Shown piece after piece: positions 4,494 to 13,730 of a stretch of DNA of 64,000 nt. The notes under the pieces were generated by a model, which was given only the letters and a program-made list of their open reading frames with translations, was not told the DNA's origin and made no database searches. The stretch's first letter is position 1, and the number at the start of each line of letters is the position of its first letter. The stretch lies in assembly GCF_011045215.1 (NCBI RefSeq), contig NZ_CP049201.1; one strand, 5' to 3'. The DNA is from Escherichia coli (GTDB lineage Bacteria > Pseudomonadota > Gammaproteobacteria > Enterobacterales > Enterobacteriaceae). Position numbers and translations under genes: made by a program.

Positions 4494-5138
4494 ATGGCAA
4501 TGATATTCAACGCTAAGGGTTTTTTATTCGATATGGACGGTACGCTGGTTGATTCAACAGCCGTAGTGGAAAACGTCTGGAGAGATTTTTGTGCAGAATA
4601 CGGTCTTGATTCTCAGGCTGTGATTGCTTACGCACACGGGCGGCAAACGATTGATACACTAACGCATTTTATTGGTGCAGGTGAGAAAACCAATAAAATC
4701 GCGGCCTCACTCGAAGAGGTTGAAATCAACACGACAGAAGGCGTTACTGAAGTAAAAGGGGCCGCTGCACTCTTATCAAAACTGCCACCGGATAGCTGGG
4801 CACTTGTCACTTCTGCAGGCAGAATGCTTGCCGAAAACAGGATGAAAGCGGCTAATCTCCCCTTACCCAGAGTAATGGTGTGTGCAGAAGATGTAATGAC
4901 GGGAAAACCAAGTCCCGAGGGTTACATCAAAGCAGCTTTGGCTTTGGGCCTTGAGCCTGGTGAATGCGTGGTATTTGAGGATGCATCTGCGGGTATAAAA
5001 GCAGGGCTGGCAAGTGGAGCTTCGGTAATAGCTGTTCAGCCTGACGCTCTGGGATCATCTGAAGCCCATGCCGTCAGCGAACTGTCTGACATTATGGTCA
5101 AGATTTCCGGAGAACGTTTCAATATCATCTGTGGTTAA
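4494..5138 (+). CDS. HAD-superfamily (subfamily IA) hydrolase/phosphatase
   Basis: HAD motif I FDMDGTLVDS near N-terminus; C-terminal motifs (VVFEDASAGIKAG). Confidence 0.8.
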   Translation: MAMIFNAKGFLFDMDGTLVDSTAVVENVWRDFCAEYGLDSQAVIAYAHGRQTIDTLTHFIGAGEKTNKIAASLEEVEINTTEGVTEVKGAAALLSKLPPDSWALVTSAGRMLAENRMKAANLPLPRVMVCAEDVMTGKPSPEGYIKAALALGLEPGECVVFEDASAGIKAGLASGASVIAVQPDALGSSEAHAVSELSDIMVKISGERFNIICG

Positions 5139-6657: not shown

Positions 6658-7707
6658 GTGCGGGTATTACTTCGACCTGTTCTGGTACCGGAACTCGGGC
6701 TGGTGGTCGTTAAGCCGGGCCGTGAATCCATGCCGGTATTCCACAATACCCGGGTACTGGTGGAGCCGGAACCGAAAAGCATGCGTAATCTGCCGTCCGG
6801 GATCGTTCCTGCCGTTCGCCAGCCGCTGGTGGAAGACAAAACATTGCTGCCGTTTTTCAGTAATGCACGGGTAATTCGTGCTGCTGGTGGTGCTGGTGCA
6901 TTGTCTGACTGGCTGTTGCGCCATATTAAATCCTGCCAGTGGCCACACGGCGATTATCATCACAGCGAAACCGTTATTCACCGTTATGGTACCGGCGCAA
7001 TGGTGTTGTGCTGGCACTGCGACAACCAGCTGCGTGACCAGACATCCGAATCACTCGAGCAACTTGCTCATCAAAACCTGTCAGCATGGATGATTGACGT
7101 CATCGGTCACGCAATAAGCGGTACGCAGGAGCGTGAATTATCTCTGGCTGAATTATCCTGGTGGGCGGTCCGCAATCAGGTGGCGGACGCGCTACCGGAA
7201 GCGGTATTACGTCGTTCGCTGGGGTTGCGTGCGGAAAAAATCCGCTCCATGTACCGTGAAAGCGACATCGTACCGGGAGAGCAGACCGCCACCAGCATAC
7301 TGAAACAGCGCACAAAAAATCTTGCGCCGCTGCCTCACGCCCACCAGCAACAGAACCCACCACAGGAAAAGACGGTGGTCAGCATTGCCGTTGATCCTGA
7401 GTCTCCGGAATCTTTCATGAAACGACCTAAACGTCGCCGCTGGGTTAATGAAAAGTACACGCGCTGGGTTAAGACACAGCCGTGTGCATGTTGTGGAAAG
7501 CCCGCTGATGATCCCCACCACCTGATAGGCCACGGTCAGGGGGGAATGGGTACAAAAGCGCATGACCTCTTTGTGTTGCCTTTGTGCAGAAAGCATCACG
7601 ACGAGCTGCATGCGGATACCGTGGCATTTGAAGAGAAGTATGGCTCCCAGCTGGAGCTGATATTTCGTTTTATCGATCGTGCGCTGGCAATTGGCGTGCT
7701 GGCCTGA
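6658..7707 (+). CDS. ydfU: DUF968-family prophage protein (YdfU-like), 349 aa
   Basis: C-terminal CACCGKPADDPHHL...CRKHHDELH zinc-binding-like motifs as recalled for YdfU/DUF968; position before Q as in Qin. Confidence 0.7.
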   Translation: MRVLLRPVLVPELGLVVVKPGRESMPVFHNTRVLVEPEPKSMRNLPSGIVPAVRQPLVEDKTLLPFFSNARVIRAAGGAGALSDWLLRHIKSCQWPHGDYHHSETVIHRYGTGAMVLCWHCDNQLRDQTSESLEQLAHQNLSAWMIDVIGHAISGTQERELSLAELSWWAVRNQVADALPEAVLRRSLGLRAEKIRSMYRESDIVPGEQTATSILKQRTKNLAPLPHAHQQQNPPQEKTVVSIAVDPESPESFMKRPKRRRWVNEKYTRWVKTQPCACCGKPADDPHHLIGHGQGGMGTKAHDLFVLPLCRKHHDELHADTVAFEEKYGSQLELIFRFIDRALAIGVLA

Positions 7708-7709
7708 TT

Positions 7710-8069
7710 TTGTGGAGAAAGTTGATGCGTGATATGTATGAAGTTTTAGACCGCTGGGGAGCGTGGGCTGCAGCAGATAACAGTGGTGTGGACTGGCAGC
7801 CGATAGCAGCAGGCTTTAAGGGGCTTTTACCTCATGGTAAAAAAATACGCCTTCAGTGTGATGATGATGAAGGCATCATGATAGACGGCTGTGTTGCCCG
7901 CCTGTGTAAGTATAAACCAGACGAATATGAGCTGATCATTGCTCACTTCGTTATAGGTATTTCACTGCGTTCTATTGCGAAGAGACGCAGATGCTCAGAT
8001 GGAACAATCCGGAAGCAATTGCAGACTGCGTTAGGTTTCATTAATGGGGTTATGTACATGCTCAAGTAA
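7710..8069 (+). CDS. Phage antitermination protein Q-like, 119 aa
   Basis: Small basic protein with Cys cluster and C-terminal HTH-like segment (IAHFVIGISLRSIAKRRRCSDGTIRKQL), at the canonical Q position upstream of the lysis cassette. Confidence 0.6.
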   Translation: MWRKLMRDMYEVLDRWGAWAAADNSGVDWQPIAAGFKGLLPHGKKIRLQCDDDEGIMIDGCVARLCKYKPDEYELIIAHFVIGISLRSIAKRRRCSDGTIRKQLQTALGFINGVMYMLK

Positions 8070-9288
8070 TATTTGGCATTAATTTAAATAAAATACCGAT
8101 GATGCCTATGAATGTAGGCATCCATGCTAGTGATAATAAACTGTCAAGCACCTTATGACAAAAATCCTCATTGTCATTTAATTTTTTAATAGCCTCTTCT
8201 AAGCTCTCTTTAAGATCGCTGGTGTCATCCTTTATTCTATATCTTAATTGTCCAAAAAGTATTTCTTTAGAGTGTGAAATACGAGCAAGTTGTTTTTTTT
8301 GTGACACAATCATTGCAGATGTTATTATTGCTGTGATAATCAATCCAATTAAAGCAATAATCCAATCAGCTTTTGTTGTTAATTTGAAAATAGCAATTGA
8401 ACCAGCTAGTGAAATAGGTATTGCAAGAGCTTTGTTAGAAATTTCTGAAATTATTTTTGACAGTTTTTCTGAGTAATCGAGTTCAGCATCAACAACTTCT
8501 TTCCTTGCTTTATGAAAAGAAAATGCCGATATATAAGCAGCTAAGTTGTTCGTATAAAGTTCGCATATGAAATCCCACTTGTTAATTAACTCGACAAAGG
8601 AATTTCCATTTTTATTAACATACTCAATAACTGTGTTTCTGAAAGTGTTAATCTTTTCAATGTGATGGGCATCAGTAGTAGCTTCACTACTTACTAATGT
8701 TTTAACTAACTGAGTATTTACTGTTTTATCATTAAAAATTTCTTCTGTAATATTTGTTTCAATTACAGCAGAAGAAGATTTAGACTCTGAGTTTAAAATA
8801 AAGACTAAACGATAAAATGTACCTTTGCTATCTTTTTTTATATCATGGAAATGAGCAAGCATGGAAAGAGCATTGATTAGCTCACAAATGTCCTCAATTT
8901 TTTGGATATAAGAAGGTTTTGGTGTTTCTAATGAATAGAAATCATCCTCTATAATATAGAAATACTCTGGCATTATGCCTTTCTTGAGCGTGTTTATTTT
9001 TACAAACTCGTTTTTATTTTTATAAAAACGATTCGCACTTCCTTGTGAAATTTTAAACGAGTATGTAAGAAAATTTCCCTTTTCAGGAAAGTCTTCATAA
9101 TCATAAATTAAATGACCATCCACCTCTATTTCGTCAGCTGTACCAGCTTGAAAAGTAGGGTTCAAAATTCTTTTGAACAATGATTTTACGTCTGCATTAT
9201 AAGCTATACGCGCAGAAAACTTAGCCCCGTCAAAATGAGGATAGCTTGATAATCTATACAGATTAACTATTATACTAAAATCATTCAT
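8062..9288 (-). CDS. Membrane protein, 408 aa, three predicted TM helices in C-terminal third; candidate effector of two-gene cassette
   Basis: ATG overlaps upstream gene stop (ATGA at 9285..9288); hydrophobic helices (ALAIPISLAGSIAIFKL, WIIALIGLIITAIITSAMIV, LLSLAWMPTFIGIIGILFKLM); AT-rich codon usage. Confidence 0.7.
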   Translation of the reverse strand: MNDFSIIVNLYRLSSYPHFDGAKFSARIAYNADVKSLFKRILNPTFQAGTADEIEVDGHLIYDYEDFPEKGNFLTYSFKISQGSANRFYKNKNEFVKINTLKKGIMPEYFYIIEDDFYSLETPKPSYIQKIEDICELINALSMLAHFHDIKKDSKGTFYRLVFILNSESKSSSAVIETNITEEIFNDKTVNTQLVKTLVSSEATTDAHHIEKINTFRNTVIEYVNKNGNSFVELINKWDFICELYTNNLAAYISAFSFHKARKEVVDAELDYSEKLSKIISEISNKALAIPISLAGSIAIFKLTTKADWIIALIGLIITAIITSAMIVSQKKQLARISHSKEILFGQLRYRIKDDTSDLKESLEEAIKKLNDNEDFCHKVLDSLLSLAWMPTFIGIIGILFKLMPNIT

Positions 9289-10451
9289 TCTTTATCTTCT
9301 TCATTACTCGGGTTATCAGTTTCTTTCAACGCTCTTCTTATCTTAGTTAATGCTTCAACAGGCAAATTATTAAATGTTAGGCTTTGGTTTTCGTCATCAT
9401 AATATATTTTAGCATCAGTTGTGACACCGAGTAAATCCTTGTCGAAGTGAAAGCTCAATGATGGGGTTTTATATATCACATTGCGGATTTTATCTAAGGA
9501 GTTTTTATTGATTACGAACTCTGATGGGATTCTGACTTCCTCACTATTGAGGTGTTTCATTAATTTATCAACAAGTTCTGTTTTTTCTTCCTCTTTTAAA
9601 TAGGACATATGGCCTGAAGCAAGCGATTCGATATCAGAAAGCCTTGCAGAGTGCTCGTTGTCAAATTGCTTTTCTAAGTATTTGATAACATCATTTCTAA
9701 ATGACTCTGCTTGATTTTTTAAAAGAGGTTCTTTCTTAAAGAAACGCCTTATTTCATCTGGTAACTTACGGGTTGCGCCTGCTGAAGCAATCCCCTTGTC
9801 ACATCCTAATGCTGCTATAAAATATGCTGCCGCTGACTGTCCCGTAGTTTTGCTTATAAAGCTTAGATAACTTAAGTCTGTTTTTTTTAAATCATCTGCT
9901 TTTTGGTATTCTTCATAATATCTGAAATTTATTTTTGCTGCTTGGTTAATATTACCAAGTTCTAAGTGAATCATTTCCTCTGGCTCTAAATTTTCACTAA
10001 TAGTTACGCCATTAGTTTTTTTGATCATTGTAACCAATAGATAACGGAAACCAGATAAAATATAATCAGTAAAAACAACATATCCTCCAGAAGCCCAAAT
10101 CTGCTCTTGAGCAGATTTATACATTTGTTTCATAACTTCCTTCGATAATTCAATGAAATCATTTGAAACAGATTGTTGAACTAAAGAGTATTTATGAAAT
10201 AGTTCTGGTATAGGGCCTTGTTTTGTTTTATTTTTAATAAAAACACCATAATGCGCTGAGTTCCCTTTTGAACCATACAAATCAATAACACCGTCTACTA
10301 ATTTTTTTACTATATCATTTGTTTTATCTAGTTCTGTATCACGAAGATTGTATGGTTTGGAGTGATCGAAGTCTTTATTAGATTCTTTTAAGAGCTCATG
10401 AACGATTACGTGGCGTATGCTTGCTTTGCTCATTTTTTTGGTCAATTCCAT
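9285..10451 (-). CDS. NdpA/YejK-like (NA37 family) nucleoid-associated-protein homologue, 388 aa; candidate sensor of two-gene cassette
   Basis: Motif-level resemblance to recalled E. coli YejK: N-terminal IRHVIVHELLK, central GGYVVFTDY...YLLVTMIK...ISENLEP, YLSFISKTTGQSAAAYF, C-terminal SLTFNNLP. AT-rich (~30% G+C in a 60-nt spot check). Confidence 0.75.
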   Translation of the reverse strand: MELTKKMSKASIRHVIVHELLKESNKDFDHSKPYNLRDTELDKTNDIVKKLVDGVIDLYGSKGNSAHYGVFIKNKTKQGPIPELFHKYSLVQQSVSNDFIELSKEVMKQMYKSAQEQIWASGGYVVFTDYILSGFRYLLVTMIKKTNGVTISENLEPEEMIHLELGNINQAAKINFRYYEEYQKADDLKKTDLSYLSFISKTTGQSAAAYFIAALGCDKGIASAGATRKLPDEIRRFFKKEPLLKNQAESFRNDVIKYLEKQFDNEHSARLSDIESLASGHMSYLKEEEKTELVDKLMKHLNSEEVRIPSEFVINKNSLDKIRNVIYKTPSLSFHFDKDLLGVTTDAKIYYDDENQSLTFNNLPVEALTKIRRALKETDNPSNEEDKE

Positions 10452-10551
10452 GCGGTTAAGCTAACAATTGTAAAGAGCATAATAAATTACTAACGCGTAC
10501 GCAAAAACTATCATAATCTGTTAAGAGTGGTTACTTCGCCACACAGCTTAA

Positions 10552-10580
10552 ACCCGCCGTCGAGCGGTTTTTTTGTACCT
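10552..10580 (+). terminator. Candidate late-operon terminator (tR'-like) preceded by candidate late promoter
   Basis: Short GC hairpin cccgccgtcgagcgg followed by ttttttt; upstream TTACTA-N18-TCATAAT promoter-like hexamers at ~10489..10522. Confidence 0.35.
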
Positions 10581-10672
10581 GTAAAACTGGTGCAGTACAG
10601 TAAACACGCTGGTGGTCGTGAATACTGACTTTTTATCTTGCTGGCTTTTTAGACAAGAGTTATTGGTATGTC

Positions 10673-10900
10673 ATGTTAACCAGAAGGGAAAAAGACATGC
10701 TAAAACAGCAAGATATGACAGAAACCGCCGCCGCAGTCCTTCATTTCTTACCTGCTGACAAGTGGGTAACGCCACGCATGATGACGAGAACTACCGGAGT
10801 AAGCGAAGCCCGGTGCCAGTTAATACTGACTCAGTTAGTTCTGGCGGGTCTGGCGAAGGATAACGGCGGGTACGGGAATAAATTCAGACGCTGCCAGTAA
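10673..10900 (+). CDS. Hypothetical small protein, 75 aa (possible winged-helix)
   Basis: ORF first in the late operon; no motif assigned. Confidence 0.4.
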   Translation: MLTRREKDMLKQQDMTETAAAVLHFLPADKWVTPRMMTRTTGVSEARCQLILTQLVLAGLAKDNGGYGNKFRRCQ

Positions 10901-11050
10901 TGGCGGTTTCCTGCTGTGAAAATGGGCGGCTGGTGGGTGTTGGTAGCACCTGCCAGCCATTCGCTCATGCTTACTGGTCACAAGCGAACCACGGCCCACT
11001 GCTTTAGCGCAAAAGCAGAGTGAGCCTACCAGAGTTACGCTTACTGATCC

Positions 11051-12103
11051 ATGAAAAATACTGTAAAAATAAACAGTGTTGATTTAATCAACGCTGATTG
11101 CCTGCATTTTATTCAGTCCTTGCCTGATGATTCCATTGATCTGATTGTTACCGATCCGCCGTACTTCAAAGTGAAGCCCAACGGCTGGGACAATCAGTGG
11201 AAAGGGGACGAAGATTACCTGAAGTGGCTGGACTACTGTCTGGCCCAGTTCTGGCGGGTACTGAAACCAGCCGGAAGCCTTTACCTGTTCTGTGGACATC
11301 GCCTGGCATCTGATATTGAGATCATGATGCGTGAACGTTTCAACGTGCTTAACCATATCATCTGGGCGAAGCCGTCCGGACGTTGGAATGGGTGTAATAA
11401 AGAAAGTCTGCGCGCATATTTTCCTGCCACAGAGCGCGTTCTGTTTGCTGAACATTACCAGGGGCCATATCGCGGCAAAAGTGACGGCTATGCGGCAAAA
11501 GAAAGGGAACTCAAACAGCACATAATGGCACCGCTGATATCGTATTTCAGGGATGCTCGTGCCGAACTGGGTATAACGGCAAAACAAATTGCCGAAGCCA
11601 CAGGTAAGAAAAATATGGTTTCCCACTGGTTTGGTGCCAGTCAGTGGCAGTTGCCGAATGAGGCTGACTATCGGAAGTTACAGGCACTGTTTTCCCGTAT
11701 AGCGGCAGAGAAGTTTCAGGAACAACAACTGGAACAACCACACCACCAGCTGGTGGCATCTTATGATTCACTGAATCGCAAATATTCTGAATTGCTGGAT
11801 GAGTTTAAATCTCTCCGGCGCTATTTCTCCGTATCAGTCTCCGTGCCTTATACCGATGTCTGGATGCATAAACCCGTTCAGTTCTACCCGGGTAAACATC
11901 CGTGTGAGAAACCTGCGGATATGCTCCGGCAAATAATCAATGCCAGTAGTCGACCTGGTGATCTGGTTGCTGATTTTTTTATGGGATCCGGTTCCACAAT
12001 AAAAGCAGCAATGGCGCTGGGGCGTCGGGCCTTAGGTGTTGAGCTTGAGTCAGAGCGGTTTAACCAGACAGTGAAAGAGATATACGAGCTGGTGGGGAAA
12101 TAA
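11051..12103 (+). CDS. Orphan DNA N6-adenine/N4-cytosine methyltransferase (beta class)
   Basis: Catalytic DPPY motif near N-terminus (LIVTDPPYF) and AdoMet-binding FxGxG near C-terminus (DFFMGSGST); no cognate endonuclease gene adjacent. Confidence 0.85.
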   Translation: MKNTVKINSVDLINADCLHFIQSLPDDSIDLIVTDPPYFKVKPNGWDNQWKGDEDYLKWLDYCLAQFWRVLKPAGSLYLFCGHRLASDIEIMMRERFNVLNHIIWAKPSGRWNGCNKESLRAYFPATERVLFAEHYQGPYRGKSDGYAAKERELKQHIMAPLISYFRDARAELGITAKQIAEATGKKNMVSHWFGASQWQLPNEADYRKLQALFSRIAAEKFQEQQLEQPHHQLVASYDSLNRKYSELLDEFKSLRRYFSVSVSVPYTDVWMHKPVQFYPGKHPCEKPADMLRQIINASSRPGDLVADFFMGSGSTIKAAMALGRRALGVELESERFNQTVKEIYELVGK

Positions 12104-12109
12104 TCTGGT

Positions 12110-12133
12110 GGCCACGTAGGTGGCCTTTTTATT
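12110..12133 (+). terminator. Hairpin plus T-tract after methylase gene
   Basis: ggccac-gtag-gtggcc followed by tttttattt. Confidence 0.45.
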
Positions 12134-12169
12134 TCCATTACACAGCACCCGCATCTGCGAGGTGGGGTT

Positions 12170-12385
12170 ATGAAATCCATGGATAAGTTAACAACGGGTG
12201 TCGCCTATGGCACCTCAGCAGGTAGTGCCGGGTACTGGTTTTTACAGTTGCTCGATAAAGTCACGCCCTCACAGTGGGCGGCAATAGGTGTGCTGGGTAG
12301 TCTGGTATTTGGCTTGCTGACGTATCTGACAAACCTTTATTTCAAGATTAAAGAAGATAAGCGTAAGGCTGCGAGAGGTGAATAA
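12170..12385 (+). CDS. Class II pinholin (phage 21 S-like), 71 aa with dual start MKSM
   Basis: Translation [71 protein letters not shown] matches recalled S21. Confidence 0.8.
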
Positions 12386-12882
12386 TGTCGCCATCATTAC
12401 GCAAGGCTGTTGCTGCTGCTATTGGTGGTGGGGCTGTTGCCATAGCGTCTGTGCTCATCACTGGTCCGAGTGGTGACGATGGCCTGGAAGGTGTCAGCTA
12501 CATACCATACAAAGATATCGTTGGCGTATGGACTGTATGTCACGGACACACCGGAAAAGACATCATGCTAGGTAAAACGTATACCGAAGCAGAATGCAAA
12601 GCCCTCCTGAATAAAGACCTTGCCACGGTCGCCAGACAAATTAACCCGTACATCAAAGTCGATATACCGGAAACAACGCGCGGCGCTCTTTACTCGTTCG
12701 TCTACAACGTGGGTGCTGGCAATTTCAGAACATCGACGCTTCTTCGCAAAATAAACCAGGGCGATATCAAAGGCGCATGTGACCAGCTACGTCGCTGGAC
12801 ATACGCTGGCGGTAAGCAATGGAAAGGCCTGATGACTCGTCGTGAGATTGAGCGTGAAGTCTGTTTGTGGGGGCAACAATGA
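12385..12882 (+). CDS. SAR endolysin (lysozyme, phage 21 R-like)
   Basis: N-terminal Gly/Ala-rich SAR domain ([20 protein letters not shown]); lysozyme-family core; ATGA overlap with holin stop. Confidence 0.85.
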
Positions 12883-13346
12883 GCAGAGTAACCGCGATTA
12901 TCTCCGCTCTGGTTATCTGCATCATCGTCTGCCTGTCGTGGGCGGTCAATCATTACCGTGATAACGCCATCGCCTACAAAGAACAGCGAGATAAAAAAGT
13001 CAGTGAGCTGAAGCAGGCGACCGCCACCATCGCTGACATGCAGCAGCGTCAGCGTGATGTTGCTGCGATCGATGCAAAATACACGAAGGAGTTAGCCGAT
13101 GCGAAAACTGAAAATGAAACTCTGCGCGCTGATGTTGCCGCTGGTCGTAAGCGCCTGCGGGTCAATGCCAGTTGCTCCGCAGCCGTGCGTGAAGCCACCG
13201 GACCCACCAGCATGGATAATGCAACCAGCCCCCGACTGGCAGACACCGCTGAACGGGATTATTTCATCCTCAGAGAACGGTTGATGACGATGCAGAAGCA
13301 ACTGGAAGGGGCGCAGGAATATATCCGCACCCAGCGCATTAAGTAG
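12867..13346 (+). CDS. i-spanin Rz
   Basis: N-terminal TM segment then coiled-coil-like sequence; overlaps endolysin end; Rz1 embedded in +1 frame. Confidence 0.75.
13099..13284 (+). CDS. o-spanin Rz1 (lipoprotein), embedded in Rz
   Basis: Lipobox LVVSAC followed by Pro-rich mature region. Confidence 0.7.
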
Positions 13347-13367
13347 CTGGAGAAAAAACACGAATCT

Positions 13368-13730
13368 GTGGTTTTTACTGAGCGCGGTGTACACGGTGGA
13401 ACATATGGCGGGAAGTTTGTTGCTTATGATTATGCAGCATGGCTAAACCCCGGATTTAAATATGCAGCCTATAAAGTCCTGGATGACTACTTCACCGGAG
13501 AACTTCAGCATCGCAACAGCTTAAGTGCGCAGCTCAATATGAAGTGTCATGAGTTTGATCAGAAAAAAGATATGGCGAGCTTCTGTGGACAAGGGCTGGC
13601 GGCATGGCGCTATACGAAGCCAGTGTTGGTCGCTGAGATTAACTCCCTGGCTAACCAGCTGCAGATAACGATCCCCGGGCTGTCCGGTATTTGCCGGTAT
13701 GAAATTACCGGAAGGCGCGGTCGTTACTGA
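13368..13730 (+). CDS. KilA-N-domain-like protein or remnant (GTG start)
   Basis: Translation FTERGVHGGTYGGKFVAYDYAAWLNPGFKYAAYKVLDDYF resembles KilA-N domain; non-ATG start, same frame as Rz. Confidence 0.35.
   Translation: MVFTERGVHGGTYGGKFVAYDYAAWLNPGFKYAAYKVLDDYFTGELQHRNSLSAQLNMKCHEFDQKKDMASFCGQGLAAWRYTKPVLVAEINSLANQLQITIPGLSGICRYEITGRRGRY

Follow-up and report, generated by a model that had tools for sequence, protein, structure and literature searches.

An M.EcoGII-family adenine methyltransferase gene in a conserved, terminator-flanked block between Q and the lysis genes of a lambdoid prophage

The methylase gene and its neighbors

The 64,000-nucleotide stretch of Escherichia coli DNA analyzed here (the window) encodes, at positions 11051 to 12103 of the plus strand, a 350-residue protein with an ATG start that we assign to the M.EcoGII family of β-class N6-adenine DNA methyltransferases. 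The protein matches the N6_N4_Mtase profile (PF01555) over positions 1 to 220 of 221 (E = 5.4e-42; 144.7 bits versus a cutoff of 26.7). A DPPY motif in the N-terminal half (residues 35–38, nucleotides 11153–11164) precedes an FMGSG (FxGxG) motif in the C-terminal half (residues 310–314, nucleotides 11978–11992), an order that defines the β class, as the initial annotation of this DNA had already read from the same two motifs. Between the two catalytic halves, ≈130 residues fall outside of the Pfam profile and make up the target-recognition region, which includes a putatively helical target-recognition domain (TRD; residues 160–237, approximately nucleotides 11528–11761). The family feature looked for at these residues is a four-helix bundle with a helix–turn–helix, accompanied by long, partly helical linkers. 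Matches in a sequence search of the PDB cover the catalytic halves alone (residues 9–114 and 282–333), with no solved homolog found for the central 130 to 170 residues comprising the TRD and linkers. An AlphaFold2 model built on a shallow alignment of nine sequences is of low confidence overall (mean pLDDT of 56.6); its best-scored stretch is region 150 to 250 (70–83), which is modeled as all helix (residues 145–173, 177–184, 190–194, 204–223, and 231–254), in keeping with such a bundle but too weak for a fold comparison.

The companion of the methylase is a small ORF on the plus strand (10697–10900) that encodes a 67-residue winged-helix-like protein and is preceded by an AAGGGA Shine–Dalgarno sequence. 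It is annotated at the same place in the RefSeq entry of strain Ec-U11, matches the function-unassigned family phrog_331, and is found in all seven of the seven E. coli and Shigella loci with a full-length methylase, as two alleles that are ≈51% identical. Weak matches to winged helix–turn–helix profiles recur in all alleles (TrmB and MarR_2 in five of five, DprA_WH in four of five; best E = 6e-5), and an AlphaFold2 model, which is of low confidence (pLDDT of 62.7, shallow alignment), contains three helices.

Further upstream lies the antiterminator gene Q (7710–8069, plus strand; PF06530 Phage_antitermQ, E = 5e-44), the true start of which is probably the ATG at 7725. This Q is 84% identical to that of Stx2a_WGPS2 and weakly matches the Q21 structures 6P18 and 6JNX (E = 0.004). 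It is preceded by a DUF968/HNH gene (6658–7707), a common gene of the lambdoid nin region; this gene was considered as a restriction partner of the methylase and rejected, since it is missing from methylase-bearing Serratia and N15-like loci. Inserted in the opposite orientation between Q and the methylase block, and not part of the block, is an AT-rich two-gene cargo (8062–10451, minus strand; ≈31% GC versus ≈48–55% in the flanks), which consists of a YejK/NA37-like nucleoid-associated protein (9285–10451, minus strand; PF04245 NA37, E = 2e-50) and a 408-residue partner with C-terminal hydrophobic segments (8062–9288, minus strand). The layout of this pair resembles that of type II PANGU (bioRxiv 10.64898/2026.04.06.716658). 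Its matches to the NCBIfam anti-phage models DS1_1 and DS1_2 fall far below the cutoffs of those models, and PADLOC returns no match for the cargo cassette, the small ORF, or the DUF968 gene. A functional coupling of the methylase to the nucleoid-associated protein cassette was also considered and set aside, since the methylase block is also found beside different cargo or without any. In each of the three loci of this Q type (the window, Ec-U11, and Stx2a_WGPS2), the slot between Q and the putative late promoter holds a different, unrelated inverted cassette, joined at the same conserved junction, and further loci carry other cargo 5′ or 3′ of the methylase; the Q-to-lysis interval is a cargo hotspot, as the initial annotation had described it.

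Downstream of the methylase, a lysis cassette (12170–13346, plus strand) encodes a P21-type holin (12170–12385, plus strand; PF04971, E = 2e-35), a lysozyme (12385–12882, plus strand; PF00959, E = 1e-45), and Rz (12867–13346, plus strand; PF03245, E = 5e-49), followed by terminase and structural genes. This arrangement puts the methylase at the start of the late transcript, with Q on one side and the lysis genes on the other, a position common in lambdoid phages and recognized as such from the outset. No restriction endonuclease or other nuclease family adjoins it among the identified neighbors (small ORF, holin, Q, and nucleoid-associated protein-type cargo), and all neighbors are accounted for. 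The locus lacks the adjoining cognate endonuclease gene of a type II restriction–modification system, and the earlier description of the gene as an orphan holds in this sense. A tRNA scan of the whole window finds none, and the locus is therefore not the tRNA–stx arrangement of Stx phages.

Relationship to M.EcoGII, site-specific relatives, and distribution

The window methylase aligns collinearly with M.EcoGII over the full length, with 281 of 349 residues identical (81%) and two gap positions, in a comparison that uses the M.EcoGII sequence machine-read from Supplementary Table S1 of PMC11551740, with two to four OCR slips spotted against natural homologs. Identity is highest in the N-terminal catalytic region (89%), followed by the TRD (77%), the C-terminal catalytic region (75%), and the first and second linkers (72 and 73%). 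M.EcoGII derives from a prophage of E. coli O104:H4 C227-11 (EGT69837.1; Murray et al. 2018, PMC5778455) and is 349 residues long versus 350 here; like the window methylase, it has the β-class motif order, a collinear TRD and charged linkers, a prophage home, and no restriction partner. The two enzymes differ at 19% of residues overall and at 23% in the TRD, with the window allele being of the SfV orf48/cdtI/mEp460 type. The segments assigned to the dimer interface of M.EcoGII (residues 97–110 and 116–140; PMC11551740) read FNVLNHIIWAKPSG and NKESLRAYFPATERVLFAEHYQGPY in the window protein and carry one change each relative to M.EcoGII, S98N, which is the ancestral state, and I130V. The closest phage copy of M.EcoGII is that of Stx2a_WGPS2 (93%), the layout of which is that of the window, with DUF968, a short Q, inverted cargo, small ORF, and methylase in this order; downstream of the methylase, the window has a terminator and P21-type lysis genes, versus tRNAs and stx on the M.EcoGII side of the comparison. 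We conclude that the window methylase is an intact and very common member of the already characterized M.EcoGII family.

In vitro, M.EcoGII can modify as much as 99% of dA, in every dinucleotide context (PMC5778455). The synthetic reconstructions Anc291, a resurrected ancestor, and SUPREM (Ochiai et al. 2024, PMC11551740) are active on both DNA and RNA, show no methylation motif on RNA, and are 89 and 71% identical to the window methylase, respectively; every tested ancestor from M.EcoGII back to the last common ancestor with M.PflMI is active on DNA and RNA (PMC11551740). SUPREM carries a Glu at residue 179 that is tied to higher RNA activity (PMC11551740); the window protein has Gln at this position, the state of the M.EcoGII clade. 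Given 81 to 89% identity to enzymes with context-free activity, the window methylase most probably modifies adenines in any sequence context, and the differences from M.EcoGII noted previously may confer some sequence preference. The initial annotation had taken the gene for an uncharacterized orphan with a target motif to be discovered, an expectation that gives way to membership in a family of non-specific adenine methylases. Since M.EcoGII-type enzymes are silent in the lysogen and motif free, the proposed search for a motif in the methylome of the lysogen versus a cured strain would be invalid and falsely negative.

The alternative of a sequence-specific orphan methyltransferase that recognizes one discrete motif, and that would guard against one or several restriction systems or regulate epigenetically in the manner of Dam, CcrM, or YhdJ, draws on the fact that most PF01555 enzymes are site specific, that some homologs are labeled “site-specific DNA-methyltransferase” in RefSeq, that nearly a quarter of TRD positions differ from M.EcoGII, and that the predicted TRD fold of M.EcoGII resembles that of M.PflMI (PMC11551740). 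M.PflMI, a β-class enzyme specific for CCANNNNNTGG, is the nearest site-specific relative of M.EcoGII, and the two are predicted to fold alike overall, helical TRD included (PMC11551740); yet, by the description in PMC11551740, its identity to M.EcoGII is no more than 27% and it has no charged interdomain linker. The window methylase retains this linker. The high identity of the window protein to M.EcoGII and to Anc291, which is motif free on RNA, argues in the same direction. YhdJ/M.EcoKII and the β-class enzymes of solved structure (PDB 8urk/9c3u, M.RsrI 1eg2, M.MboIIA 1g60, and CcrM 6pbd) have in common with the window methylase the catalytic Rossmann halves with DPPY and FxGxG motifs, but the window protein scores far below the NCBIfam equivalog cutoffs for YhdJ (NF008572; 108.2 bits versus 292) and CcrM (NF050803; 66.7 bits versus 830). 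On balance, we regard a site-specific enzyme as very improbable.

Homologs of the methylase are found in 1264 of 5426 complete E. coli genomes, with up to eight per genome, and copies at least 95% identical to the window protein occur in about 1000 genomes. A 100% identical copy, annotated “DNA-methyltransferase,” is present in strain Ec-U11 (RefSeq WP_164475710.1). At the DNA level, the gene shares 96 to 99% identity with annotated DNA methylase genes of phages cdtI, mEp460, Ayreon, and SfV (orf48), versus 84% with an Stx2c phage gene, and the position after Q and before the lysis genes is shared by E. coli, Shigella, Serratia, and N15-like phages. The ratio dN/dS is 0.08 to 0.10 in comparisons with SfV, Stx2a_WGPS2, and strain 14EC047; intact copies are, as judged from these ratios, under strong purifying selection. 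In many Stx2a phages, the methylase is reduced to a 50-residue C-terminal remnant directly after Q, from which it follows that the gene is dispensable. Such remnants, together with the description of the home of M.EcoGII itself as a “cryptic prophage” (PMC5778455), would fit a gene that has lost its activity or is decaying as a passenger in a defective prophage. We consider this scarcely credible for the window allele, a full-length ORF with both catalytic motifs, a low dN/dS, an identical copy in another strain, and its many near-identical relatives, in a prophage the lysis, terminase, head, and tail genes of which appear complete up to ≈37.3 kb.

Terminators and leader of the conserved block

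The methylase is the last gene of a conserved block that runs, in order, through a terminator, the small ORF, a second terminator, a 150-nucleotide leader, the methylase, and a third terminator, and that is joined to differing Q genes and lysis cassettes in different phages. Immediately upstream of the block lies the putative late-promoter (pR′) region (10452–10552, plus strand), placed there from position and conservation. The stop codon of Q (8069) overlaps that of the cargo (8062) and leaves no room for a promoter at that junction; the late promoter is therefore expected in 10452 to 10552. A candidate −10 element, CATAAT (10478–10483), has an A-T-A core that is conserved, together with the downstream sequence, in the three loci of the window's Q type, and a consensus promoter scan calls no site in this expected pR′ interval. 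Over the whole region scanned, 12 promoter-like sites are called versus 13.1 in shuffled sequence; with no excess of such sites, nothing suggests that the methylase is expressed independently.

The left edge of the block is a tR′-like hairpin followed by a run of seven T (10553–10574, plus strand), called by a terminator scan. This first terminator is conserved in the window, Ec-U11, SfV, and mEp460 despite their differing Q genes and is annotated in SfV as a putative rho-independent terminator after Q; its stem is weak in the window, with four GC pairs. The third terminator, between the methylase and the holin (12110–12135, plus strand), is a GGCCAC-GTAG-GTGGCC hairpin followed by TTTTTATTTC; it is the top match of the terminator scan (−12.3 kcal/mol, z = −2.5) and is conserved in Ec-U11, in mEp460, and in SfV, where it is annotated as a terminator.

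The second terminator-like hairpin, followed by a T-rich run, lies across the small-ORF stop codon (10890–10911, plus strand). To follow it and the leader across phages, we used 60 distinct leader variants from viral contigs, anchored on a conserved stretch outside of the hairpins. Among these 60 loci, the second hairpin occurs as 26 sequence variants, all of which form a 5- to 7-bp stem followed by a U-tract, and at two base pairs both partners have changed (UA to CG in 15 sequences, UA to GC or CG in 6). We read this covariation as compensatory change that preserves the second terminator. The window copy of the hairpin has a z score of −2.05, and its T-run, TTTCC, is weaker than the TTTTTTATTT of other alleles.

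Between the small ORF and the methylase lies a conserved, untranslated leader of 150 nucleotides (10901–11050, plus strand), which contains a two-tier hairpin of ≈20 bp (10922–10968). Leader identity is 75 to 87% in comparisons in which third-codon positions of the methylase are only 45 to 61% identical. The long hairpin occurs as 20 variants, with the stem kept in all (−25 to −34 kcal/mol); its changes are one-sided and compatible only (U·G to U-A, G·U to G-C), and the covariation argues for this hairpin more weakly than for the second terminator. Overall, 94.9% of cells are paired versus 32 to 51% in slid-partner controls, for a structure derived from the same 60, mutually related sequences. 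A permissive Rfam scan of 7600 to 13500 finds nothing in the leader or the promoter–terminator region, with one chance-level match in the cargo (E = 0.27). No Shine–Dalgarno sequence is visible before the methylase, the only gene of the block without one, and two hairpins flank the methylase AUG, which itself sits in a short unpaired stretch.

Expression and role in the phage life cycle

M.EcoGII is not expressed in its native lysogen, and when expressed, it is deleterious and slows growth; its discoverers proposed that the enzyme is turned on at prophage excision to beat host restriction (PMC5778455). For the window methylase, non-specificity, silence in the lysogen, harm to the host, and protection of the kind seen in vitro are carried over from the M.EcoGII literature and would apply here. 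The arrangement of the locus adds to this picture, as terminators on both sides of the gene and the lack of any promoter signal above chance are consistent with a methylase that is silent in the lysogen.

The reading that we consider likely is that of an M.EcoGII-family, probably context-free adenine methylase that is gated by Q and that partly methylates phage DNA against restriction. The Q-dependent late transcript of the lambdoid prophage would carry the methylase as its first long gene. Late-promoter transcripts would, in the lysogen, end at two or three intrinsic terminators, located right behind the promoter, at the 3′ end of the small ORF, and after the methylase, and the harmful enzyme would not be made. 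Upon induction, Q-modified RNA polymerase would read through these sites, with enzyme output presumably limited by the absence of a Shine–Dalgarno sequence and by the structured leader. Replicating phage DNA would then become partly N6-methylated ahead of packaging, which would blunt those type I, II, and III restriction enzymes of the next host that are blocked by adenine methylation. In the literature searched, we found no paper on hypermethylated virion DNA of methylase-carrying phages, none on a methylase that improves plating on restricting hosts, and, for EcoGII with lambdoid phages or prophage induction, no direct test in the phage life cycle. The anti-restriction idea of the initial annotation is also the function suggested in the literature for M.EcoGII-type enzymes (PMC5778455; PMC12707154) and to this extent stands; for the window methylase, we infer Q-dependent expression, limitation of dose, and an anti-restriction benefit in vivo.

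A similar logic is found in phage Mu Mom and in the α-class promiscuous adenine methyltransferases of the M.HaeV/Hia5 type, which are likewise broad-specificity modifiers on temperate phages, silent in the lysogen, harmful, and switched on for DNA export (PMC12707154; PMC5778455). The folds or motif orders bear no relation to those of the window methylase, and Mom has a chemistry of its own; the likeness is one of analogy and not homology.

A non-specific enzyme might also serve mainly in a role other than anti-restriction, such as methylation of late RNA or DNA:RNA hybrids, a mark for replication or packaging, discrimination of phage versus host DNA, or disruption of host DNA transactions late in infection. 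In vitro, M.EcoGII also modifies ssDNA, RNA, and DNA:RNA hybrids, the latter on both strands (PMC5778455), which, like the conservation of the methylase beside a small winged-helix-like protein, could be taken to favor such a role. [quoted passage not shown] However, no feature of the locus points to an RNA target, loss of the methylase from many successful Stx2a phages indicates that neither packaging nor replication requires it, and protection has been directly shown in vitro for M.EcoGII, the methylation of which blocks 12 six-cutters and 6 four-cutters (PMC5778455). A main role of this other kind is in our estimation improbable, and partial methylation against restriction remains the preferred reading.

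Beyond this, the conserved block, from the tR′-like terminator through the small protein, the second terminator, and the leader with its invariant-armed 20-bp hairpin to the start codon that lacks a Shine–Dalgarno sequence, could serve specifically to set the dose of a dangerous, non-specific methylase, an extension that we find doubtful. The small protein and/or the leader RNA would then act like the controller element of a restriction–modification system and would set the extent to which the phage genome is methylated; no regulator of this type has been described for M.EcoGII in the literature searched.

The enzyme family has already been described, and what this locus adds is minor, namely, a conserved leader and terminator gating together with the winged-helix-like companion. 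RefSeq labels these genes “DNA-methyltransferase” or “site-specific DNA-methyltransferase,” yet they belong to the family of the non-specific M.EcoGII; with a copy in roughly one in four complete E. coli genomes, this is an activity that methylome surveys of lysogens will miss. In some Shiga toxin phages, the methylase block lies directly upstream of stx2, and its terminators are therefore part of the toxin control region there. Finally, flanking terminators, together with a structured leader and the absence of a ribosome-binding site, offer a simple explanation, at the level of sequence, for the published silence of these methylases in lysogens.

Terminator-like hairpins and the leader of the methylase gene

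The methylase, a 350-residue N6-adenine DNA methyltransferase of the M.EcoGII family (window 11051–12103, plus strand), is bracketed by terminators, with hairpins at 10553–10574, 10890–10911, and 12110–12135. The second of these, a terminator-like hairpin that overlaps the stop codon of the upstream small ORF, occurs as 26 sequence variants among 60 loci; its sequence is wholly changed with retention of the stem and U-tract, and compensatory changes are found at two pairs across these 60 loci. Upstream of the methylase start codon lies an untranslated leader of 150 nt (10901–11050), which in between-locus comparisons is 75 to 87% identical, exceeding the 45 to 61% identity at methylase synonymous sites. 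The leader harbors a two-tier hairpin of ≈20 bp (10922–10968) that is retained in 20 of the 20 variants found. A comparison of the leader with Rfam returned no family match; the leader could act in processing, gate translation, or be bound by a protein.

The small ORF itself (10697–10900) encodes 67 residues assigned to phrog_331 and accompanies the methylase in all seven E. coli/Shigella loci examined; it is missing at the loci of Serratia phage OS31 and the N15-like YDC107_1. It exists as two alleles that are ≈51% identical and diverge mainly in the center, and each allele gives weak yet consistent matches to winged-helix models. Further upstream, a conserved stretch extends from the candidate late promoter to the first terminator (10488–10574), from which a short transcript of ≈85 nt would be expected in the lysogen. 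Lambda 6S RNA and the StxS sRNA of Stx phages are possible analogues of this predicted transcript; 10488–10574 is not predicted to fold any better than shuffled sequence does (z = −0.6).

The methylase in Stx phages

Many Stx2a-converting phages have only a C-terminal remnant of the methylase left (≈50 residues, corresponding to residues 315–348), positioned directly 3′ of the antiterminator gene Q and 5′ of the tRNA genes and stx2. This remnant is found at 4962–5114 of the Stx2 phage 86 locus (L005) and in many Stx2a phage records. Other Stx phages, e.g., Stx2a_WGPS2, retain the full-length methylase upstream of the tRNAs and stx2.

Inverted cargo between Q and the putative late promoter

An AT-rich (31% GC) cassette lies inverted on the minus strand (8062–10451); one of its two genes codes for a YejK/NA37-like nucleoid-associated protein, the other for a 408-residue partner with C-terminal hydrophobic segments. 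PADLOC returned no hit on the cassette, which matches the NCBIfam anti-phage models DS1_1 and DS1_2, but far under their cutoffs. Its gene layout resembles that of "type II PANGU," abortive-infection systems that pair a NAP sensor with a transmembrane effector (2026 preprint, bioRxiv 10.64898/2026.04.06.716658). Three loci sharing the same Q type, the window, Ec-U11, and Stx2a_WGPS2, carry unrelated inverted cargo between the Q stop codon and the late-promoter region (window 8062–8069 and 10449–10460; 9799–11410 in L003 and 2823–4408 in L004, the two non-window loci). The cargo operons in all three loci begin at one conserved junction, TTCCAT (ATGGAA on the cargo strand), an arrangement that points to a fixed site at which cargo is exchanged by recombination.
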